A stretch of 10,716 bases of DNA from Thermoplasmatota archaeon (GCA_965234725.1 CBDDUX010000088.1:1-10716); one strand, 5' to 3'. Positions 1 to 10,436 are shown, numbered from the stretch's first letter. Numbers and translations: made by a program. The notes: generated from the letters alone by a model not told the origin.

Positions 1-465
1 ACTAACAATAACGAGTTCTGCCCTGCCAATTGTCTTCGCCCCGAAGAAGTTTAAAACCACAAAAACCGAGATCAATATGGTTTCGGTTGCTGCCATAGAG
101 ATGAAGTTCACATTCAATCCCATAAATGGCAGAAAATACCCAGCGAAACCTTTGAGAAACAATGAGATGGAAACAATGTAACTCACAAGTATCAGGATAC
201 TCATTGTTCCTGTCCAGATATTATCCCCTATCCCCTTGATGATGAACTCTATAGGCCCTGAATTGGAAGTGATCTTCGAGCTCAACTTTGAGTAGGAATA
301 AGCGACCATTAACGCAAGCGAAGAGGAAATAAGGAAAGCGATAGGGAGGTTGGGACCAGCGATCTTAACTCCAACTCCGAAAACGGAGAAGATGCTGGCT
401 CCTATCATTGTTCCGACTCCGATCGAAACAGCTTCTATCAATCCGATCTTATTACCCTTCATCAT
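1..465 (-). CDS. APC-superfamily amino acid permease, ApcT/MJ0609-like; only the N-terminal 155 codons are present, the gene runs off the left edge
   Basis: Absent from the ORF track, so translated by hand from ATG at 465: MMKGNKIGLIEAVSIGVGTMIGASIFSVFGVGVKIAGPNLPIAFLISSSLALMVAYSYSKLSSKITSNSGPIEFIIKGIGDNIWTGTMSILILVSYIVSISLFLKGFAGYFLP...LNFFGAKTIGRAELVIVS, open to base 1. TM1 motif MIGASIFS and the segments AYSY, GDN and KGFAGYFLP match my recollection of Methanocaldococcus ApcT. Confidence 0.93.
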   Translation of the reverse strand, partial: MMKGNKIGLIEAVSIGVGTMIGASIFSVFGVGVKIAGPNLPIAFLISSSLALMVAYSYSKLSSKITSNSGPIEFIIKGIGDNIWTGTMSILILVSYIVSISLFLKGFAGYFLPFMGLNVNFISMAATETILISVFVVLNFFGAKTIGRAELVIVS

Positions 466-536
466 ATCCCTTTGAAAGACCAATGGACTTCTGACATGCT
501 ATTAATAATGATAAACTGGTTGAATGCATGAAATGA

Positions 537-1001
537 TCAATCCTGACAATGTCCGGTTCTATCCCTTATGAGAAATACCGGACAGCATGCGTGTCTGACC
601 ACTTTCTCCGCGGTTCCTCCTATCAGAAGATGAAGGAGTCCTCCTTTTCCATGAGTCCCCATGACGATCAGATCATAATCCTTTGAAGCTTCTATGATCT
701 CATTCGCAGGATTTCCTAAGATGATCCCGGATTTCGCATCTATTCCATTATTCATTGAAATTTTCTTATATTCCTCGACCATTTCTTCTGCACTTTTCTC
801 TAATTGTTGTTGGATCTGCTCCTGGGAGACCTCTATACCTTCCAATCCTGGCATCCCCCAACTTGCGGGGATATTCTCATTCACATGCAGAATGAACACA
901 TTGCTCCCGAACGTTTTTGCAAGGGACAATGCATTCTTGAGAGCTTTCTTTGACAGGTCAGACCCATCGATCGGTACCAATATTTTCTTGTATTCTTCCA
1001 T
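537..1001 (-). CDS. uspA: Universal stress protein (single USP domain, UspA/MJ0577-like)
   Basis: N-terminal YKKILVPIDGS, GNPANEII, DLIVMGTHGKGGLLHLLIGGTAEKVVRHACCPVFLIR (G-x2-G-x9-G nucleotide-binding loop). AGGAGG Shine-Dalgarno upstream. The symbol is family-level only. Confidence 0.95.
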   Translation of the reverse strand: MEEYKKILVPIDGSDLSKKALKNALSLAKTFGSNVFILHVNENIPASWGMPGLEGIEVSQEQIQQQLEKSAEEMVEEYKKISMNNGIDAKSGIILGNPANEIIEASKDYDLIVMGTHGKGGLLHLLIGGTAEKVVRHACCPVFLIRDRTGHCQD

Positions 1002-1572: not shown

Positions 1573-2064
1573 TCAATCTGTTGTGAAATCGTCTGGAAGG
1601 TAGATCCAACCTGAACGATCACCTTTGTAAAGTATGCCTATCGTTGCACCTTCATATTCCTCTGTAAGACTGGTTATCACAATATTATCTGTCGGATCTG
1701 CAGTTTCGGGATTCCCAGAGAAATCATCATGCCACACTGAAACAATTCCAAATCTGGAGGGTTCATTTTCATATTCATAGGGTGTGGCACTTGGAATATC
1801 AATATAATCCCCAATTTTTACGGAAATAGTAATAAGAATCCATTTATAGTCCATGTCATAAGGATCGATATCATCGATCGTTATATGTGCATCCCAGACC
1901 GTAACATTGTCCTGGTCCCTTGATTCGACCTTTTCTATCATAAGTGTGAATCTTACCTTTACCCCGTCTTCCCTACCGGGTTCAGAGCAGCCTGCCATCA
2001 TTAGCATTGGAATGATCAGTGAAATGGGTATCAGGGCTTTGATAAAATTATTCTCGATCCTCAT
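1573..2064 (-). CDS. Predicted lipoprotein / surface protein of unknown function
   Basis: Hydrophobic leader ending in a lipobox-like MAG-C26 (ALIPISLIIPMLMMAGC). Acidic mature domain with beta-strand patterning. GGTGG SD-like element and TATA-like box upstream. Confidence 0.8.
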   Translation of the reverse strand: MRIENNFIKALIPISLIIPMLMMAGCSEPGREDGVKVRFTLMIEKVESRDQDNVTVWDAHITIDDIDPYDMDYKWILITISVKIGDYIDIPSATPYEYENEPSRFGIVSVWHDDFSGNPETADPTDNIVITSLTEEYEGATIGILYKGDRSGWIYLPDDFTTD

Positions 2065-2444: not shown

Positions 2445-5400
2445 TCATTCTTCATCAAGCAATCCTTTCCTTGGTTTCACCATAATGATAATAATTACGG
2501 CTCCAAGGATCAATATGATTACAAGGACCAATACAATGACGAACAGAAGATACGGGAATCCATTTTCTTTATCATCATCCTTATCGTCATCATCATCATC
2601 TTGGTCCGCAACCTCGACAACGGTCACCACCATAGTATCTGTATCCCAAAGACCTGCATTACTGGTAACGTTCAGAGTGATAGTGTAATTCCCCGGTATT
2701 TCAAAGTGGTGTAAGGGGGATACCCCGTCAAGGATAACATCTTCGTATCCGTCATTGAATGTCCATGTGTAGGTCACGATCCCGATCTCATCCGTACTAC
2801 CGCTTCCGTCGAAAGTGACATTTGTTCCCTTTTCCACAGTCTGGTCCGGACCGGCGTTGGCTGTAGGTGCGGAAATGATCGAAACGGTTGTGATGGCCTC
2901 GGATAATTGATCTTTCTCTTCCCTATGACCTACATAATCGGTTGCTACCGAGTAGAAACCGTATGTGCTGTTCACGGTTCCATTGAATTCCGAGGATGTG
3001 AGGTTGGTTCCCTCCAGCCAGAGGGTCCATGGTTCTTCATTCTCCTTCAGATAGATGTCATATCCGGCAATCCCAGAACCTCCTTCATCGTCCTGACCAC
3101 TCCAGGAAACAGTAAAATTCTGGCCTTCATGTTCGGTCAAAGCATTCACCTGGCTTTCAGGTGGTCCCGCATCGATAGTGACCAGGGCCTCGAGGTCCGG
3201 AGAGGTTCCTTTTGACCTATCAAGAGGATCGATCTGATTGGTGTCTATCTCCATGCCTAGATTGAACTGTATGGTTGCAACGTTCCTGATCTCTGTCCCA
3301 CTAGGAAGGTCAGATCTCGGATCGATGTTGTACATGAAGTATCCCTGCCCCCTTCCAGTGTCATCTTCCGGTGGAAGGAATCCAATGTTCACCTCCGGTG
3401 GTAGTTGGGTGATCGGGTCTATGGAATCTATCATCACGAATACCTCACCTTTTGTTGTGTCGATCTCCCCAATGATGTGCAATTCGATCTCCATATCGTA
3501 ATCGTCGTCCTTGTAGCTGTATTCCATGACCTCATCAACATATGTTGTCCCCGGTTCCAGCGGTAATGCAAAATCCCCGAATCCAATTTCTGTGAACTCG
3601 AACGTGGACCAGTCGAGGTCCTCCGATAACGGATCCAATATAGTCACGATTTGAGCGGGAGCTGTTGCCTCTTCCATATTCTCGAATTCGACGATATAGG
3701 AAAGTTGTGTCCCTTCAGCCACATGGTTTCCTGGACCGATACCCATCAAGCATTCCTTGTGATTGGGATCCAGTGGGGTCAGCGTGTTCGCCGGCTCGAA
3801 GTCAAATAGTGAGGCGATAAACTTGATCCCTTTGTAGATCCCAACAGCAGCGATCACCACGGCTGCACCAATTAAAAGGGGAGCGGCGATAGGAGCCACT
3901 GCCGCGAGAGTACCAAGCGATAATAAGGTGCTAACCCCCGTGACTATATCCACTCCCGCTCCTACGAATTGGGCATCAGTTGAACTTATAAAATTGCTGG
4001 AGGCACCTTCAGCTAACGTTCCCCATGGGACGTAATTACTTGCCGCACTGGCGAAAAGACCTTCCGGGTCGACAAGGTTTGTTGGAGAATTGTGGACATA
4101 TCGATAGAGGTTGAGATCGTTGCCGCCGATCCCTAAGGGGTCCATGGAGGTGAAGCGTCCTGTTTGTGGATCGTATTGCCTTGCCCGCATGTGGACAAGA
4201 CCCGTCGTATCGGTCATCACACCTTTCTCTCCGACGAACCTGAAAGGATTGGGAACTGATCCCTGCTCTGAAATGATATCTCCGAAGGGCATATAGGAGT
4301 ATGAATTCACCGATGCTCCCGTGGAGTCTGTAAGTTCCTGCGTATTTCCCATCAGATCGAAATTGTAGAAATAGGATTCCCCGGTTCCTGTTTCCATACT
4401 AACAAGGTCTGAACCGTAGATGTACCTTGACATCATCGTGCCGTTCTCATCGTAAGCACCTACCACCTCTCCCATTCCCATCGGGTCAACCACAAGATAT
4501 GATGAATTGCCGTTTTCGGTGATGGAAACACGGTTTCCCAGTCCGTCGTAGGTGTATGACCAGATGTCCTCCCCTTTGGAAACACTGATCAGACGATTAT
4601 CATCATTGTAGGTATAAGTGGTTGTGCCATTTGGTCCTGCTTCCGATATAAGATTTCCATCAGAATCGTAGGTATAGCTCACATTTCCGACCATTATGTA
4701 TTGGTTGAGTTCGTTGGATTGATAGAATTCCTCTACCCCGTTCAATACGGTTCGGACCCGATTGCCCATGGAGTCATAATTATATTCAATGTCCTGAGCA
4801 GGGGCCTCGGGGTCCCTGCAAGGATCGAAAACTGCTTTGACGAGTTGATCCCTGTCATCGTAAGAATAGTGCCAGTTTCCTTCTCGGTTACTGGTGTTTT
4901 TTATCCTTCCACAGGCATCATAGGTGTATCTGAACCATGAAATGACCGTTTCGTCGGGTTTGAAATTCGCCAGTTTCGTGATCCTTCCGGCGGCATCATA
5001 CCCATAAGTGGTATACACTCCATTCTCCAAGGTTTTTGTGGACAATCTTCCCAGCGGATCATATTCATACTTGACAATGTCGATTCCGGTGGATGTCATC
5101 AATCCTTCAAGACGACCAGCGTGATCATAATCGTAGTTTATCCTGTTCCCCAGATGATCGATGCTTGCGCTTCTGCGACGAGCATTATCGTATGTGAACG
5201 ACAACCACTGCCCATTAGGATAGTCTATATGGGTCAGGAGATCGTTGGAGTTGTAGGTATAGTTCGTCACCCCTGTCGAATCCTCCATGGATATCAGGTT
5301 CCCTCTATCGTCATAATTGTAAACAATCTCCGAACCATCCGTATATCTCTTCGAGGTGATCCTCCCTTTGGAATCATGGGAGAAGCTGGTTGTGTTACCC

Positions 5401-8400
5401 CGCCTGTTCGTCAAGGTGATGAGGTTTCCCTTTTCATCATATGATCCGGTCTCTGCGCTTCCGTCAGGATGTATGATCCCGATCAAATTGCCATTATCGT
5501 CAAGGTCGTATCCCATACTGGACCCGTCAGGATAGATGATCCGTTCCATCAGATCGAGTTCCTGATCATATTTGACCTGATATTCATAACCTGCTCTGTC
5601 CTTCATTTCTATAATATTCCCTTTGAAATTGTCGTACTCTATCGATAATCCGGCCGGATCCGTGATCGTTTCTATCATTCCCAGTCCATCGTATATGACA
5701 CAGTAAGAATCACCAAGTGCATTATCGTATCTGATCACTCTTCCCTGATGGTCATGGAAGAACCGTTCTGTGTTTCCAAGAAGATCGGTTATCCTCACCA
5801 AGCCCTGACCATATACGAAGGTGTGCCTCTCCAGTTCTTCTTCACGGTAATGGGAACTGATAGCTCCGTGGCTGTTGTAGGTTATGTATATCCTGCTATC
5901 TCCCAGGGGTGTGATGCCAGTGAGAGCATGTTCCGATGGCGATCCTTCTGTTTTGTCATAGTAGTAGACTTCATTATATCCATCGAAGTATTCAACGGAT
6001 GTCAGATATCCGTCGTCATATGAGTAGGTGTTTGTCCTATCATAACTATCGGTAATTTGGTCTATCAATCCGTCCCCGTTGTAAGATATCTGTATGTATG
6101 ACCCGGATGAATGGACCAGTTTGCCCAGGGAACCATCGACATATTGACAGGTTATACTGTTCCCGTTAGTGTCCTCGATGTAACCAAGGGTCCCGTCGGA
6201 ATTGAAGAACAGTGTGTTCCCATATTTCTCCTGAAGTATGAAATTATCCAGCGGAGTCTTTTTCAGTTTTCCCCAATCTCCAGGTTGGGACATGTAGGCG
6301 TTATATGATCTGACATTTGGTTGGAAGATCCGTACATTTCCTGTGTTGTCCTTTATTTTAACAGTCCCGTCAACTTCCTTCTCTAGGGAATATTGCCAGT
6401 TGTGCATCCAACCCCGTCCCAGATCTCCCTCCTCAAATCGCCTCGAGATCGAGTTTGGATAGTATCGTTCTAAGGTAAGGTCCAGACCAGGGTCATCGAG
6501 TCCGATATCATTTCTGGAATACACGGATGAATATGGTGTCCAGCCATTGGCCTGTTGCAAAGTCAAAGACAGAATCTCATCGACATCCTCGATCCTTTGT
6601 CCAAACTGGTATAGATGTAATGCGTTATCATTCAAGGTTTGTATGAAATCTCCGTATGTGGGTCCGATCTCATTCTTGAAATTTTCCCAGATGACATTCC
6701 AAGCATCTTCACTAATATCTTCAGGGATCATTTTTTCCTTGGCCCCATCCCAATCCATTATATTGTCATCCTCTTCGGTGATAATATAAAGCTGCCATTC
6801 CAGATCCGATCCGAATGCGGGATAGGGCGGCTCCCAACCGGCATAATAGATCGGGATCCTCCTGGTCTCCCCCGCTTGAAGAATACCGGGTATCTCTCCC
6901 GAGGCCAGTATCATTAGTTCGTTTTGGAATCCTTCCGGTACAAGGTCTGCCGGGGTTTCCGGTATGGTGCCAGCCTTCATACCGGCTGTCCATATCCCAT
7001 ATTCCAACCGAGCTTCATCATGTGTGAGCATGCAACCCCGCCTATCATCCGGACCTGAAATGGCTGTCAAAAATAGAAGGGGGGCCCTCATAGAAATATC
7101 ACCCGTATTCGCATATTCCACATACACTATGGAATGCTCATGGTAACCCGTCCATGGTCCGGGGTCGATACTTGCTTCGAATTTTGCCTCTCCTTCTTCC
7201 AGGATCTCCAGGGAATCCTTCAGTTCTGAAGAACCATTTCCTGGACGGACCACACGGGTATCATAGATATCTACGGGAAGGAGGTTCCCCTTTACATAGG
7301 CAATTATCAGATTGGGAGTGTTTACATTGACCAGTGGTACTTCATAGTTTGTGCCATCCGATCCGACGAAGATAACCTGGAGGGGTTCTGCAAAACCAAT
7401 TCCCCTGAGAATCAGATCCACGGGGACACCGATTATATGTCTTGAGGGTGCCACATCTTCCAGAATCAGTTCCACGACATCGAATTTTATTGAAAAGCTG
7501 CCGGAATCGACCATGTCATCCCCATGAACCAGGACATACCATTTTCCGGAATAAGCTGATTGAACTGATAATTCCCCATTGTCGGAATGATGATCATGTT
7601 TGGACCTTGTGGGGAGGTCTCCGTGTCTTACCATCATCTCCAAGCCGTCAGGACCTTCCAGGGTCAGGTGGATGTTCTTGGAGGAGGGAAGTTTGATCAT
7701 GTAATACTGGTCTAACGTTCCGATTGGGTACTCACTGTTATGTTCGATCCCCTCCTTGAGTTCAGGAATTGCTATGTTGAAGGTCACCTCTTTCTCATTG
7801 TTCAGACGGTGTCTTTCCACAAAGGACCATTCATCGTTGGCAGACATTATCAGGTAATAGGGTCCCTCGACCAAGGGTGGAATGGTGATGTTCAGGAACC
7901 ATGCATAACCTCCGTTTTTTGATATATTCTTTGAAACGATCGTAGAATTCAACATCATATCCATTGAATCAAGATAAGGATCATTGGAGAGATAGATGGA
8001 ATCCTTCCAGGTCTCTCCGGTCACTGTTGCCTCTTCAGAATTGACAACGGTGTAGGTTATCGCCGCGGTTTCGTCGATTGCCAATGTTTCAGGGACGTTG
8101 ATACTGGTTACCCTCAGGTCCGGAAAAGATGGTGTACCATCGATGACATCGAAACTCATTGTATCCTTTTTCAGATATTCCTTACGGTTCAGGGTGAAGG
8201 AATATGAGATATCTTCAGTACCTGGAGAAGAGAATTGGATCAAACCCGGGTTCTTTGATGAGGAGGTCCTGTCGTCACCGAATGTCCAGAGATATCCTAT
8301 ATTCGGATCAGGTGAGGAGGATCCCCTGAATCTCAATGAGTCACCTTCCACCAGGGTGCCGATATGCTTTGGTGAAAGGATCCTTGCTCCTTGTGCATTC

Positions 8401-10100
8401 AGTAATGCCTGGAGATAGGGAAAATCCTCACCTTCGATAATCCCCCATACATTGCTGAAATCCCATGATACATAGGTTACCCTGGATCTCATCTCGATCG
8501 TGGTCTTTCCCTCACCGCCTTCTGATTCGGTCTGTCCGGAGGTATCAATGTTCCAGTAACAGTGTTCGAACGATCCCTCTTTTTCACCTAGGGATTGATT
8601 GACTCCTACAAAGCCTCCGATATCATTTTCCGTATCGCCGACTTCACCGATGGAATAGCAATTGGATGCCGTCCCCCCATTATTGGATCCTATGAATCCC
8701 CCGACCTCCGCTGATCCGATAACGTTGGATACGGAGTAACAATTCTTGACCGGACCGTAATTATATCCCGCAAACCCGCCGACAGCCACTTTTGCTCCAG
8801 TTACATTCCCGGATGAGAAACATCCTATGATATTAGAATCGGTTTGAGTACCCCATCCCCCATATCCCCCCACAAATCCTCCAACATGATTGGCCCCGTA
8901 AACATCTCCCGTCGAAAAGCAATTTGCAATGTCACCAGTGGAGTGCCCCAACAAGCCTCCCACACTATCCCCCATTCCGCTGACTTCACCCGTTGAGTGA
9001 CTGTTCGAAACGTTACAATAATTATCGCCAATCAGTCCTCCAACAAAACCTCCTCCGTAAACATCTCCCGTCGAATAGCAATTTGCAATGTCACCAGTGG
9101 AGACCCCCAACAGGCCTCCTACTCGACCTTCCATTCCACGAATATCACCGGTGGAGTGACAATTTAAAACGTTACCTTCATTCCACCCTATCAGTCCTCC
9201 AACATAATCCGTTCCGTATACACTTCCCGTTGCGTAGCAATCCGAGATGCTCGCTTCGTTATTCCGTCCTATCAAACCACCACCTGCAACGTCAGAGTTC
9301 ACTTCACAGGTGGAGTAGGAATTGTTGATGAATCCACCGCCATTTGCACCTATCAATCCACCTGTGTAAAAACTGCCTGTAACAATACCTGTCGAGGAGC
9401 AATCTTCAACTTTGCCATTATTTACCCCGATCAAACCCCCAATATTATCCAAAGTGCCAAGATCATTCAGATTCACATCCGTGTGGCAATTGATCACAGA
9501 TCCCTGATCATTGGCTCCTACAAGGCCGCCCACACCACCCACACCGGAAACGCTTCCCTGGAAAAAGCAATTCGAGATCAACCCCTCATTATATCCAACC
9601 AGGCCTCCAACCGTGTACCCAACCGTATTATTCCCCTCTATTTCCAATCCCATCAATTCAAGATCCATGACCCGCCCCTCGGATCCAATATATCCGAACA
9701 ATCCGCTAGATGGTGATATGATGGAGGAATTTTCAAGATCATAGATGTAAATTCCCGAAATGGTGTGGCCATTTCCGCCCAAGCTGCCCGTGAACGGATG
9801 CTCTGTCCAACCAGATATATCATAAAACTTCTCGCCGATGGGGATGAAACCCGCACCATCGTTCCATGTTTTCGTTTCCGATGCATCGATGTCGTTTCCA
9901 AGAATAAAATGAGCACTCAGGTTTTCATTCATCGCCTGCAGATCCCACACGTCTTCAATGACATAGGGATCATTCACGGTCCCTGACCCCCCACCAAAGT
10001 CCCCATCTATGCCATCGACCCCTATCTGATCTATCATCGGGAATGATGATAGGAGCATGATCCCTATTAGTAAACACGCGATTACGGCCTTGTATCTCAT
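2445..10100 (-). CDS. Giant (2551 aa) secreted, C-terminally membrane-anchored RHS/YD-repeat protein with GLUG, PKD, CARDB, PPC-like, Ig-like and FN3-like domains
   Basis: Uninterrupted 7.6-kb ORF with AGGTGA SD. Signal peptide MRYKAVIACLLIGIMLLSS; VGGLIG (GLUG) repeats; PDLRVTSI...ERHRLNN (CARDB); many YD repeats; RHS core PFRFVGE...RARQYDPQTGRFTSMDPLG...NLYRYVHNSPTNLVDPEGL; PTANAGPDQ (PKD); C-terminal TM followed by KPRK. Confidence 0.95.
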   Translation of the reverse strand: MRYKAVIACLLIGIMLLSSFPMIDQIGVDGIDGDFGGGSGTVNDPYVIEDVWDLQAMNENLSAHFILGNDIDASETKTWNDGAGFIPIGEKFYDISGWTEHPFTGSLGGNGHTISGIYIYDLENSSIISPSSGLFGYIGSEGRVMDLELMGLEIEGNNTVGYTVGGLVGYNEGLISNCFFQGSVSGVGGVGGLVGANDQGSVINCHTDVNLNDLGTLDNIGGLIGVNNGKVEDCSSTGIVTGSFYTGGLIGANGGGFINNSYSTCEVNSDVAGGGLIGRNNEASISDCYATGSVYGTDYVGGLIGWNEGNVLNCHSTGDIRGMEGRVGGLLGVSTGDIANCYSTGDVYGGGFVGGLIGDNYCNVSNSHSTGEVSGMGDSVGGLLGHSTGDIANCFSTGDVYGANHVGGFVGGYGGWGTQTDSNIIGCFSSGNVTGAKVAVGGFAGYNYGPVKNCYSVSNVIGSAEVGGFIGSNNGGTASNCYSIGEVGDTENDIGGFVGVNQSLGEKEGSFEHCYWNIDTSGQTESEGGEGKTTIEMRSRVTYVSWDFSNVWGIIEGEDFPYLQALLNAQGARILSPKHIGTLVEGDSLRFRGSSSPDPNIGYLWTFGDDRTSSSKNPGLIQFSSPGTEDISYSFTLNRKEYLKKDTMSFDVIDGTPSFPDLRVTSINVPETLAIDETAAITYTVVNSEEATVTGETWKDSIYLSNDPYLDSMDMMLNSTIVSKNISKNGGYAWFLNITIPPLVEGPYYLIMSANDEWSFVERHRLNNEKEVTFNIAIPELKEGIEHNSEYPIGTLDQYYMIKLPSSKNIHLTLEGPDGLEMMVRHGDLPTRSKHDHHSDNGELSVQSAYSGKWYVLVHGDDMVDSGSFSIKFDVVELILEDVAPSRHIIGVPVDLILRGIGFAEPLQVIFVGSDGTNYEVPLVNVNTPNLIIAYVKGNLLPVDIYDTRVVRPGNGSSELKDSLEILEEGEAKFEASIDPGPWTGYHEHSIVYVEYANTGDISMRAPLLFLTAISGPDDRRGCMLTHDEARLEYGIWTAGMKAGTIPETPADLVPEGFQNELMILASGEIPGILQAGETRRIPIYYAGWEPPYPAFGSDLEWQLYIITEEDDNIMDWDGAKEKMIPEDISEDAWNVIWENFKNEIGPTYGDFIQTLNDNALHLYQFGQRIEDVDEILSLTLQQANGWTPYSSVYSRNDIGLDDPGLDLTLERYYPNSISRRFEEGDLGRGWMHNWQYSLEKEVDGTVKIKDNTGNVRIFQPNVRSYNAYMSQPGDWGKLKKTPLDNFILQEKYGNTLFFNSDGTLGYIEDTNGNSITCQYVDGSLGKLVHSSGSYIQISYNGDGLIDQITDSYDRTNTYSYDDGYLTSVEYFDGYNEVYYYDKTEGSPSEHALTGITPLGDSRIYITYNSHGAISSHYREEELERHTFVYGQGLVRITDLLGNTERFFHDHQGRVIRYDNALGDSYCVIYDGLGMIETITDPAGLSIEYDNFKGNIIEMKDRAGYEYQVKYDQELDLMERIIYPDGSSMGYDLDDNGNLIGIIHPDGSAETGSYDEKGNLITLTNRRGNTTSFSHDSKGRITSKRYTDGSEIVYNYDDRGNLISMEDSTGVTNYTYNSNDLLTHIDYPNGQWLSFTYDNARRRSASIDHLGNRINYDYDHAGRLEGLMTSTGIDIVKYEYDPLGRLSTKTLENGVYTTYGYDAAGRITKLANFKPDETVISWFRYTYDACGRIKNTSNREGNWHYSYDDRDQLVKAVFDPCRDPEAPAQDIEYNYDSMGNRVRTVLNGVEEFYQSNELNQYIMVGNVSYTYDSDGNLISEAGPNGTTTYTYNDDNRLISVSKGEDIWSYTYDGLGNRVSITENGNSSYLVVDPMGMGEVVGAYDENGTMMSRYIYGSDLVSMETGTGESYFYNFDLMGNTQELTDSTGASVNSYSYMPFGDIISEQGSVPNPFRFVGEKGVMTDTTGLVHMRARQYDPQTGRFTSMDPLGIGGNDLNLYRYVHNSPTNLVDPEGLFASAASNYVPWGTLAEGASSNFISSTDAQFVGAGVDIVTGVSTLLSLGTLAAVAPIAAPLLIGAAVVIAAVGIYKGIKFIASLFDFEPANTLTPLDPNHKECLMGIGPGNHVAEGTQLSYIVEFENMEEATAPAQIVTILDPLSEDLDWSTFEFTEIGFGDFALPLEPGTTYVDEVMEYSYKDDDYDMEIELHIIGEIDTTKGEVFVMIDSIDPITQLPPEVNIGFLPPEDDTGRGQGYFMYNIDPRSDLPSGTEIRNVATIQFNLGMEIDTNQIDPLDRSKGTSPDLEALVTIDAGPPESQVNALTEHEGQNFTVSWSGQDDEGGSGIAGYDIYLKENEEPWTLWLEGTNLTSSEFNGTVNSTYGFYSVATDYVGHREEKDQLSEAITTVSIISAPTANAGPDQTVEKGTNVTFDGSGSTDEIGIVTYTWTFNDGYEDVILDGVSPLHHFEIPGNYTITLNVTSNAGLWDTDTMVVTVVEVADQDDDDDDKDDDKENGFPYLLFVIVLVLVIILILGAVIIIIMVKPRKGLLDEE
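2478..2606 (-). other. C-terminal poly-Asp linker and transmembrane anchor of the giant protein
   Basis: DQDDDDDDKDDDKE (2565-2606), then FPYLLFVIVLVLVIILILGAVIIIIMV (2478-2558), then KPRK, which fits the positive-inside rule. Confidence 0.9.
2619..3173 (-). other. FN3-like domain (~2883-3173) followed by a PKD domain (~2619-2870)
   Basis: FTVSWSGQDDEGGSGIAGYDIY...YGFYSVATDYVGHRE (FN3-like) and APTANAGPDQTV...VTFDGSGSTD...YTWTF...PGNYTITLNVT (PKD). Boundaries are approximate. Confidence 0.75.
3174..3770 (-). other. DPNxK / YxxxFEN domain (DUF7619-like Ig-type domain)
   Basis: DPNHK...LSYIVEFENMEEATAPAQIVTILDPLSEDLDWSTF...GFLPP...GQGYFMYNI...IRNVATIQF. The family name is from memory of the DPNDK/YTIRFxN motif and needs an HMM check. 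Confidence 0.6.
4056..6520 (-). other. RHS/YD shell: DUF6531-like start, YD repeats, and RHS repeat-associated core with aspartyl autoprotease motif
   Basis: LTLERYY...GDLGRGWMHNW at the start; repeated YDxxGRL/YDxxGNL units; core DPLG (D1987, nt 4140-4142) and DPEGL (D2011-L2015, nt 4056-4070). Confidence 0.92.
7195..8390 (-). other. Stalk of beta-sandwich domains: PKD-like (~8145-8390), CARDB (~7765-8123), PPC-like (~7476-7765), IPT/TIG-like (~7195-7470)
   Basis: YLWTFGDD; PDLRVTSINVP...YTVVN...WKDSIYLSND...GPYYLIMSAN...NNE; YYMI...MVRHGDLPT...GKWYVLVHG; LEDVAPS...LILRGIGF...YDTRVV. Boundaries are approximate. Confidence 0.65.
8412..9998 (-). repeat. GLUG-motif repeat beta-helix (N-terminal adhesin-like domain, residues ~35-563)
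   Basis: Cap GSGTVNDPYVI...LQAM...LGNDID; ~26-28-aa repeats VGG(L/F)(I/V)GxNxGxIxNCYSTGxV; terminal cap WDFSNVW...PYL. Confidence 0.9.
8896..9213. repeat. Tandem 159-bp (53-codon) duplication within the GLUG region
   Basis: 8896-8960 vs 9055-9119 match at 61 of 65 nt; atcagtcctccaaca at 9031-9045 recurs at 9190-9204 with the same 159-nt offset. Confidence 0.85.
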
Positions 10101-10148: not shown

Positions 10149-10436
10149 TCAGTTCTTTCTTATTGATGCTATCATCAGAGCTGTAGTCACAATGGTGCCG
10201 ATCAATAATGATATCTCGAAACCGTGACTATCGTCTTTGTCACAAGCTTCTTTCTCTGCATGATCGGAATGATCATAAGTCGTCTCCAATACAAGTGATG
10301 GATCGGTTGGTTTTTCAGATCCCTGATCGACATTTTTCGGAGGTGTACTATCATTTCCAACTGCCAATGGAATTGATATCAAGTATAGAAACAGACCTGT
10401 TGCTACCAGCATGATTGGAGCTTTTTGACATTTCAT
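10149..10436 (-). CDS. Small secreted protein with C-terminal TM anchor (PGF-CTERM-like, HGFE variant)
   Basis: Signal peptide MKCQKAPIMLVATGLFLYLISIPLAVG, acidic low-complexity middle, then HGFE-ISLLIGTIVTTALMIASI-RKN. Co-oriented, 48 nt upstream of the RHS gene; GAAGGA just upstream of its ATG. Confidence 0.7.
   Translation of the reverse strand: MKCQKAPIMLVATGLFLYLISIPLAVGNDSTPPKNVDQGSEKPTDPSLVLETTYDHSDHAEKEACDKDDSHGFEISLLIGTIVTTALMIASIRKN

Follow-up and report, generated by a model that had tools for sequence, protein, structure and literature searches.

What does a hydrophobic segment of 95 residues do inside a cell-anchored RHS protein, between the predicted self-cleavage site of the shell and the first domain of a stalk? 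The question arises from a contig of 10,716 nucleotides of an uncultured Thermoplasmatota archaeon of marine sediment (GCA_965234725.1, CBDDUX010000088.1:1-10716), which was analysed over its whole length and is called the window below. Its only long open reading frame (ORF; 2445..10100, minus strand) encodes an RHS/YD-shell surface protein of 2551 amino acids (aa), P0001. The original prediction, made from the DNA alone, had singled out positions 3771..4055 of this gene as encoding a membrane-active cargo behind an autocleavage site, and translation reproduced the sequence it had quoted, the coordinates, the run of 38 uncharged residues and the P-x3-P kink. Our own reading, to which we give a probability of about 0.5, is that these 95 residues form the payload slot in this anchored shell protein and hold a membrane-active hairpin. 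The evidence that carries it is an invariant protease motif in front of the slot, the exchange of the whole slot between backbones that are almost the same, a hydrophobic peak that is rare for this protein, and published shells that hide hydrophobic pieces.

An internal slot between an Rhs core and DUF7619

The protein matches the Pfam families Glug, DUF6531, RHS_repeat, DUF7619 and PKD, and the NCBIfam family Rhs_assc_core. From the N-terminus, a signal is followed by GLUG repeats with an undefined extracellular part, DUF6531, the RHS/YD repeats of the shell (PF05593, E-value 2.8e-43; TIGR01643, E-value 8.7e-31) and the Rhs-associated core. Behind the core come the 95-aa slot, DUF7619, an undefined region, a PKD domain, an acidic linker, a transmembrane (TM) helix and the tail RKGLLDEE. 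Residues 1-28 probably serve as a Sec signal, and DUF6531, by analogy with the Rhs1 literature, would be the plug of the shell. The features of the gene are listed below (KD19, Kyte-Doolittle hydropathy over 19 residues).

10017..10100, minus strand: N-terminal signal or anchor sequence, aa 1-28 (KD19 1.6-2.45)
6324..6524, minus strand: DUF6531, aa 1193-1259, putative N-terminal plug region of the shell (Pfam, 31.5 bits, cut-off 24.1)
4056..4295, minus strand: Rhs-associated core with aspartyl autoprotease plug, aa 1936-2015 (TIGR03696 positions 1-76 of 76)
3771..4055, minus strand: cargo slot, aa 2016-2110 (95 aa, 9.4 kDa), between DPEGL (aa 2011-2015) and DPNHK (aa 2111-2115)
3966..4055, minus strand: polar first part of the cargo, with small residues, aa 2016-2045, recognised from the sequence and starting after the predicted cut between L2015 and F2016
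3831..3965, minus strand: hydrophobic helical hairpin, aa 2046-2090 (KD19 up to 2.47; pattern conserved in alignment A4)
3801..3842, minus strand: amphipathic stretch, aa 2087-2100, GIYKGIKFIASLFD (helical hydrophobic moment 0.59)
3771..3800, minus strand: slot end FEPANTLTPL, aa 2101-2110 (the same in P0121, almost the same in P0002)
3231..3770, minus strand: DUF7619, Ig-like (CLIPPER-related) domain with an insertion, aa 2111-2290 (Pfam, 57.8 bits, cut-off 27)
3756-3758, 3633-3635 and 3282-3284, minus strand: predicted isopeptide triad K2115, D2156 and N2273 (K by its position in the domain, D and N by conservation and spacing)
2619..2873, minus strand: PKD domain of the stalk, aa 2410-2494 (Pfam PKD_4, E-value 1.6e-24)
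2448..2618, minus strand: acidic linker, C-terminal TM helix (aa 2511-2543) and RKGLLDEE tail (KD19 up to 3.87)

The core matches TIGR03696 with an E-value of 1.3e-21 (84.8 bits) and closes with PTNLVDPEGL (aa 2006-2015); a first motif, DPLGI, lies 24 residues before the second Asp. The catalytic set R1974, D1987 (in DPLGI) and D2011 is invariant across alignments A1 (84 rows), A2 (62 rows) and A3 (38 rows, made of aa 1190-2300 and 37 relatives), and the segment does follow an intact RHS autocleavage motif, as had been proposed. The spacing of the three residues, 13 and 24, equals that of R2103, D2116 and D2140 of BiTLP, which are proven to act in cleavage after L2144 (PMC13018210; what is cited here from this source, and from PMC8636562, PMC10684867, PMC9637101, PMC9935623, PMC12617251 and the bioRxiv preprint, refers to the consulted parts of these texts). 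The two DPLGL motifs of Rhs1 (PMC8636562) correspond to the bipartite motif found here. By homology with Rhs1, Tse5 and BiTLP, a cut is predicted between L2015 and F2016, and we regard autocleavage of the 2551-aa protein as quite probable. In the Protein Data Bank (PDB), 42 solved chains match the core, and each match ends by aa 2021. BiTLP ranks first (E-value 5.4e-15), followed by Rhs, TcC, Tse5 (2.1e-9), SGS and teneurins; the best matches, 9pt5_A and 9ifo_A, were named BiTLP from their chain lengths of 2237 and 2144.

On the other side of the slot, DUF7619 (PF24595) matches in two stretches, at profile positions 1-58 and 81-130 (35.9 and 29.7 bits). DPNHK had been taken for a boundary motif of its own; it turned out to be profile positions 1-5, the first strand of the domain, and its lysine is the predicted isopeptide lysine. 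DPNHK was also considered as a second cleavage site and rejected, since it is the first domain strand both in the Pfam profile and in DUF7619 proteins that are not RHS proteins. A survey of isopeptide domains predicts the triad Lys657/Asp695/Asn764 in DUF7619 (domain 653-784; PMC12617251), and K2115 takes the fifth position of the domain here, just as Lys657 does in the surveyed representative. The D-P-N of DPNHK is invariant in A1, A2 and A3, and N2273 (in RNVATIQF) is invariant as well; K2115 and D2156 are kept in at least 90% of the rows of A1 and A2, the lysine falling below 90% in A3. To judge from these conserved residues, a Lys-Asn staple would enable the first domain of the stalk to withstand load. 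A PDB search with the DUF7619 part of the protein gave nothing useful.

The chain continues for 441 residues behind the slot, and for 183 to 1684 in relatives. P0002, P0003, P0005, P0007 and P0121 have a similar C-terminal end; the membrane anchor is absent from most bacterial relatives. In P0004, from a congener (locus L018, genome G190), the RHS ORF stops without an anchor, and a 63-aa ORF 52 nucleotides past it (L018:9910-10101, plus strand) holds an acidic linker, a TM helix and a tail ending in SLYEE. This split-off anchor is a frameshift or an assembly error. DUF7619 is not confined to RHS proteins either: it scores above the cut-off in 29 of 401 Thermoplasmatota genomes, among them in non-RHS carriers of about 1140-1580 aa (G042, G151, G198, G276, G363, G066 and others) that contain the domain at full length (E-values 1e-22 to 3e-34) and are unmatched by an RHS-DUF7619 query (aa 1968-2300).

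The host assembly (3.5 Mb) has a single gene with an Rhs core and a single gene with DUF7619, which are one and the same. The closest database relatives of the RHS-DUF7619 protein carry Thermoplasmatota labels, and the same architecture is present in independent assemblies. Contigs of three other marine-sediment runs, from two other studies, span the junction between DPEGL and the cargo with at most one difference (they cover 3817-4148, 3905-4162 and 3938-4139). The junction is therefore real, and its sequence is no assembly artefact. Small word shares of other runs are uninformative on habitat. Matches in RNA run X12 are confined to the Rhs-core side (4128-4508, 82-96% alike) with none on the cargo, and this run gave no evidence of expression.

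Replacement of the slot and the hairpin family

A search with aa 1930-2300 returned 901 proteins at E-values up to 0.001 among 6525 candidates; among the matches listed, all 120 carry RHS repeats and PF24595. In species-representative genomes the RHS-DUF7619 relatives amount to 131 matched stretches, from at least ten phyla and one archaeal family. The slot was delimited by its pattern in 104 of 121 proteins, the 17 missed ones being left out of the counts, and likewise in 53 of 80 genomic loci. In the 104 proteins it is 10-223 aa long, with a median of 131 aa. The original prediction had proposed to ask whether this interval is hypervariable while its borders, DPxGL and DPN(x)K, are conserved, and it is: 105 pairs of proteins are at least 70% identical over 200 aa downstream, and within such pairs the identity of the cargo goes down to 11-19%. 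Three pairs illustrate this pattern.

P0050 and P0081: identity 0.64 upstream, 0.17 in the cargo, 0.92 downstream
P0015 and P0028: identity 0.82 upstream, 0.32 in the cargo, 0.94 downstream
Chloroploca asiatica and Chloroploca sp. Khr17: identity 0.74 upstream, 0.30 in the cargo, 0.95 downstream

The cargos of P0015 and P0028 resemble each other solely in their final 33 aa. Proline makes up 13.3% of the final 40 aa of the slot across the family, compared with 5.6% elsewhere, and this end is conserved through cargo swaps. The variable part thus consists of the first ~100 residues, whereas the end belongs to the conserved C-terminal module; in P0001 the slot end FEPANTLTPL is presumably the exit linker from the shell. 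Between the window and loci L014-L016, nonsynonymous divergence (dN) is 0.57-0.64 in the cargo and 0.07-0.12 in its flanks, 5-8 times faster in the former. The ratio of nonsynonymous to synonymous divergence (dN/dS) in the same comparisons is 0.18-0.38 for the cargo, 0.10-0.18 upstream and 0.04-0.075 downstream, showing that the cargo is coding and under purifying selection. A 252-nucleotide contig of run X3 matches positions 4055-4115 with 11 differences; precisely at the cut site it departs from the window, to which its next 187 nucleotides bear no likeness. It is a related gene with another cargo, from the same kind of sediment. In Candidatus Chloroploca mongolica, two RHS-DUF7619 copies (L024 and L025) lie about 10 kb apart on one contig, with identical downstream 200 aa, 79% identity upstream and 62% identity in the cargo.

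The hairpin of P0001 comprises a first helix at about D2051-A2069, a loop at P2070-P2074 and a second helix at about L2075-Y2089, both helices being predicted from the pattern. The uncharged, Gly/Ala-rich run extends from I2052 to Y2089, and P2070 and P2074 form the P-x3-P. KD19 reaches 2.47 in the slot, against a maximum of 1.45 in the remaining ectodomain. Among 2000 shuffles of the ectodomain, 17 attain this KD19 value and 154 contain an uncharged run of 38 residues. The hydrophobic peak is therefore rare, whereas the length of the run is not so by itself. A cationic amphipathic helix had been described at the end of the hairpin. Its amphipathic character stands, with the moment given above; its cationic character hardly does, as K2090 and K2093 are followed by the acids D2100 and E2102. 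The slot as a whole has a net charge of -3 and contains no Cys. In an alignment read by eye, 8 of the 11 rows of A4 have a basic residue at the aligned amphipathic position.

Among the slots of the family, jackhmmer recruits 10 of 103 others to the hairpin, six of them archaeal (P0121, P0002-P0005 and P0007) and four bacterial (P0010, P0012, P0018 and P0019). The recruited slots have the pattern GxGxDIxxG ... AP ... GxGLxxWGxY ... K/R in common. Compared by hhalign, this set (A4) and a set of eight further bacterial slots (A6) gave 93.1% with an E-value of 3.2e-7; two other hydrophobic or Gly-rich slots, one from archaeal P0006, gave 0.2% and 0.1%. In trees of the upstream and the downstream part, the archaeal proteins and the bacterial hairpin carriers fall into one clade of 35-36 rows with support of 96-99, so that a single recognisable hairpin family is shared by the archaeal clade and its bacterial sister clade. 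With midpoint rooting, all eight archaeal rows are monophyletic in the downstream tree, and seven of the eight in the upstream tree. The RHS-DUF7619 gene is rare in the phylum, being found in 7 of 401 genomes and in 5 of the 23 of its own family. On these sequence relationships, the distribution may be read as a single transfer from bacteria in which the hairpin would already have been present; the direction is unproven.

Other slots hold other things. TM-like segments (KD19 of at least 1.6) occur in 37 of 104, and the motif HExxH...EAY is found in 3 of 135 distinct slots (shuffle mean 0.175). The slot of L079, from a metagenome-assembled genome of the Pirellulaceae, contains CNRHDICY and has two matches to phospholipase A2 families (E-values 6.4e-4 and 2.8e-3), both below the cut-off, the better one reaching 20.7 bits where 29.4 are required; no other slot shows a recognisable signature of an enzyme toxin. 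No nuclease, deaminase or ADP-ribosyltransferase was found by Pfam in the 22 slots scanned or in 12 further ones, confirming what had been noted for the 95 residues. One might suggest that cargos acting at the outer face of a target would go well with a carrier tethered to the surface. A Cys among the first 12 residues is combined with a conserved motif, xC-x-[WAHY..]-[NSDE..], 15-75 aa before DPNxK in 37 of 131 distinct slots, compared with 19.8 expected under independence. The pairing may point to a disulfide that closes the loop of the cargo close to its exit, and BiTLP has a disulfide between its C-terminal domain (CTD) and the plug (PMC13018210); the slot of the window, as said, has no Cys.

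No family of Pfam, NCBIfam or PHROG reached its cut-off on the 95-aa segment (0 of 11 for the PHROGs, noise only for NCBIfam). DUF4781, at 17.7 bits for a cut-off of 27.9, was dismissed as compositional. A relation to halocin C8, RHS fusions of which are credited to Makarova 2019 by a preprint (bioRxiv 10.64898/2026.07.27.741052), was also rejected: the segment, being without Cys, bears no resemblance to the Cys-rich halocin. In the ESM Atlas the best score for the segment was 0.87, and glycine-zipper and colicin-like clusters at 0.83-0.85 are leads only; a longer piece retrieved DUF7619 clusters. A metagenome scan with the single protein found ordinary Rhs cores only.

Proposed membrane attack and the competing explanations

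YD-shell cavities measure 32,000-44,000 cubic angstrom and have room for about 15-16 kDa (PMC10684867, PMC13018210). The slot would take up 9.4 kDa of this, whereas the whole C-terminal fragment (536 aa, 57.9 kDa), with a membrane helix at its end, far exceeds it. The chain would therefore have to enter the shell and leave it again, and by homology and size we think it likely that the cargo lies inside with the chain exiting. That a YD shell can shield a membrane-inserting piece has published precedents, which the original prediction had not named. The shell of Tse5 chaperones an integral-membrane pore toxin (PMC10684867). The 92-aa hydrophobic CTD of BiTLP is found against the inner wall of the shell; it permeabilises Escherichia coli solely when exported (PMC13018210). 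SGS1 has predicted TM helices that lie buried within its shell and extend to an opening (PMC9935623).

On this model, the shell would fold around the slot after Sec export and cut between L2015 and F2016. Its cavity would hide the hairpin as those of Tse5, BiTLP and SGS1 hide hydrophobic pieces, and the chain would leave the shell at the slot end, as in teneurins and SGS1. The part outside would form the stalk, with DUF7619 and its Lys-Asn bond, the undefined region and PKD, leading to the C-terminal membrane helix. Adhesin elements at the N-terminus, GLUG repeats among them, could then bind another cell, upon which the shell would open or be pulled off, and the hairpin might partition into the neighbouring membrane, causing leak or depolarisation while still tethered. 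That membrane attack is indeed the job of the cargo is, in our judgement, at best an even proposition; a pore is plausible, a fusogen speculative.

A number of results weigh against such a membrane-active payload. Searched with phmmer against 1.84 billion representatives, aa 2011-2125 found only P0121 (64% identity) and P0002 (47%). The PDB yielded nothing for the 95 aa alone at E-values up to 10 and only spurious matches for the hairpin profile A4; there was no sequence relation to Tse5, BiTLP, SGS1 or colicins, all of which were in the PDB set searched. Among longer proteins, A4 detected only P0121 and P0019, and among proteins of 36-209 aa none. The hairpin was thus not found outside RHS-DUF7619 proteins, and has no independent toxin context. 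None of the 22 slots and none of the 12 further ones reached a Pfam cut-off. The hairpin helices are short (about 19 and 15 residues), and no GxxxGxxxG zipper is present, aa 2046-2090 containing ten small-xxx-small pairs and zero triples. A covalent tether is odd for a toxin. Finally, and most importantly, the loci surveyed downstream, with mechanical ORF calls, showed no immunity gene linked to the cargo. In Chloroploca the downstream gene, of 927-932 aa, is unchanged although the cargo differs; a small TM ORF comes first downstream in only 3 of 41 loci, one of these being a frame-shifted anchor; and no small two-helix ORF lies beside the archaeal RHS genes.

The explanation that gains most from these points is a structural one, which we consider unlikely but better placed than the other rivals. 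The slot would line and seal the shell and act as a knob retaining the 2015-aa N-fragment non-covalently on the stalk, the protein being an adhesin and not a weapon. The teneurin linker of 126 aa behaves in this way, sitting inside the shell, sealing gaps and exiting, and isopeptide stalks are typical of adhesins. The missing immunity gene and the lack of toxin families among the slots agree with it, as does a cargo dN/dS below 1. The hairpin type is retained in seven of the eight archaeal proteins, which fits a structural role and likewise speaks against a toxin. However, a filler would be expected to drift, whereas the slot is replaced wholesale between near-identical backbones. The protease motif, lost in teneurins, is invariant here, and about a third of the slots are TM-like, with one resembling phospholipase A2.

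Two further ideas make use of the tether. In the first, a contact- or force-triggered harpoon, the cut YD shell would be a removable cap over a hairpin that is joined through the stapled stalk to the membrane of the producer. Uncapping would plant one end of the polypeptide in the neighbour and so create a bridge for adhesion, kin recognition or fusion, and the slot would set what is planted; we regard this as a long shot. In the second, slightly less favoured still, the hairpin in the neighbour and the C-terminus in the producer would link or fuse the two membranes, or serve kin recognition. The topology fits, with a cut before the hairpin, an anchor behind it and an isopeptide domain that would take load, and a missing immunity gene is compatible with a non-toxic role. 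The original prediction had likened this arrangement to class I fusion proteins. The likeness fails behind the peptide, where the beta-sandwiches of DUF7619 (directly) and PKD follow and no heptad or helical region was seen, no coiled-coil program having been run. Most bacterial relatives, moreover, have no membrane anchor, and the idea is based on analogy only, with nothing on oligomerisation.

Equally improbable is a hairpin in the membrane of the producer itself, with two helices in the archaeon's own membrane, the shell lying on that membrane and the stalk looping between two anchors. The second helix, with its KD19 of 2.47, passes the usual threshold of 1.6, and both flanks would be outside, which a two-helix hairpin could satisfy. 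Nevertheless, the first helix is only marginally hydrophobic while the true anchor reaches about 3.9, and homologues have soluble sequences in the slot. A doubly anchored, stapled stalk is of no obvious use, and the cavity encloses the residues behind the cut in both Tse5 and BiTLP. A meaningless low-complexity hydrophobic spacer, finally, would be allowed by the run length in shuffles but is practically dismissed by the rarity of the KD19 peak, by the conservation of the pattern over archaea and bacteria and by the dN/dS of the cargo. We therefore retain the membrane-active payload as the preferred reading, at the probability given at the outset.

Neighbouring genes and comparison with known systems

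The other genes of the window are the following.

1573-2064, minus strand: 163-aa lipoprotein-like ORF (...MMAGCSEPG...), downstream of the RHS gene; no Pfam match
10149-10436, minus strand: 95-aa ORF, 49 nucleotides upstream of the RHS gene; no Pfam match
537-1001, minus strand: universal stress protein (Usp, E-value 3.3e-31), downstream; no visible link to the RHS gene
1-483, minus strand: start of an amino-acid permease, downstream; no visible link to the RHS gene

The 163-aa ORF was considered as an immunity protein and rejected; it is kept in one congener only (L011/L018, 52.5% identity, same place). The 95-aa ORF is a shortened homologue of secreted proteins of 251 and 259 aa that occupy the same place in L014 and L018. 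These have a PGF-CTERM-like end (PGFE...), whereas the 95-aa ORF misses about 165 central residues and has HGF for PGF. In L017 and L019 no homologue of it precedes the RHS gene.

That YD shells hold hydrophobic cargo is no novelty, given Tse5, BiTLP and SGS1. What is apparently new, in that we could not find it in print, is an internal swappable slot followed by DUF7619 and, in archaea, by a membrane anchor. 'DUF7619' or 'PF24595' appeared only in the isopeptide survey PMC12617251 and its preprint, in their consulted parts without an RHS link, in a literature search with subscription journals mostly outside its scope. No paper found brought Rhs, isopeptide and YD repeat together, subscription journals and the supplements of PMC13018210 and PMC12617251 being outside that scope. 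If the cargo is membrane-active, the protein would attack or touch a neighbouring membrane while tethered, without a secretion system, and would be among the few candidate contact weapons of archaea. If it is not, the protein would be a prokaryotic version of the in-and-out topology of teneurins with a live protease, which bears on the origin of teneurins. Either way, the slot is a natural, testable cassette system.

BiTLP of Bacillus inaquosorum (PMC13018210) is like the protein described here in being a Sec-exported, surface-attached YD shell with adhesin domains, in its bipartite DPxG with the same R/D/D spacing, and in the hydrophobic stretch of some 92 aa that comes immediately behind the cut. 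In contrast, this stretch is the true C-terminus of BiTLP and its shell has no opening, whereas 441 residues of stalk and anchor follow here. The BiTLP cargo has no sequence similarity to our slot; its plug is an FN-plug/NHL plug, where P0001 has DUF6531 and no NHL match in the Pfam scan of all 2551 aa. An immunity gene comes after almost all TLPs, and none was found here. Tse5 of Pseudomonas aeruginosa (PA2684; PMC10684867, PMC9637101) is another Rhs shell with a hydrophobic membrane cargo. Its toxin inserts spontaneously into bilayers, and cleavage of the core is required for activity. Unlike our protein, Tse5 is delivered by a type VI secretion system with a PAAR domain, and its toxin, of 149 aa, is a free C-terminus without homology to the segment.

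Two eukaryotic systems resemble the proposed path of the chain. SGS1, a salivary Rhs/YD protein of mosquitoes, has buried predicted TM helices after an aspartyl-protease site and a further domain (Tox-SGS) behind them; it differs in being eukaryotic, soluble and anchorless, with about 230 aa of helices, and similarity is confined to the core. In teneurins (PMC5851990), the chain runs inside the shell for about 126 residues behind the core before it exits to outside domains, as proposed here; this linker seals gaps of the shell in what is a membrane-anchored adhesion protein. However, teneurins have lost the protease motif, their linker is a conserved structural element, their anchor is N-terminal, and the domains outside are ABD and Tox-GHH instead of DUF7619. 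In length, the slot (95 aa) is comparable to the teneurin linker and to the CTD of BiTLP.

The stalk itself recalls the CLIPPER/DUF11-type isopeptide domains of fibrillar adhesins, with which DUF7619 has been grouped (PMC12617251) and whose lysine is the fifth residue, as is K2115. The consulted part of this survey makes no link between DUF7619 and RHS and names archaea for CLIPPER and CLIPPER_2 only. Unlike fibrillar adhesins, P0001 has DUF7619 just once, interrupted by an insertion and placed immediately after a toxin-type slot. The ionophore toxins of contact-dependent growth inhibition (CdiA-CT, PMC11630599) are comparable as polymorphic, hydrophobic, helical toxins carried on a Sec-exported surface protein and inserted into the membrane of a neighbour on contact. 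In contrast to what is seen here, these toxins detach from CdiA, invariably come with a small immunity protein of two helices, CdiI, and travel on a carrier that has no YD shell.

As regards the classical traits of polymorphic toxins, the variable region right after DPxGL is present in our protein, while the C-terminal position of the toxin, a recognised toxin domain and a co-varying downstream immunity gene are not. RHS and other polymorphic toxins are taught as a delivery part, a shell and a toxin at the very end. The RHS-DUF7619 sub-family breaks this toxin-last rule, as its swappable payload lies behind a shell with an intact autoprotease motif and in front of a strongly conserved stalk.

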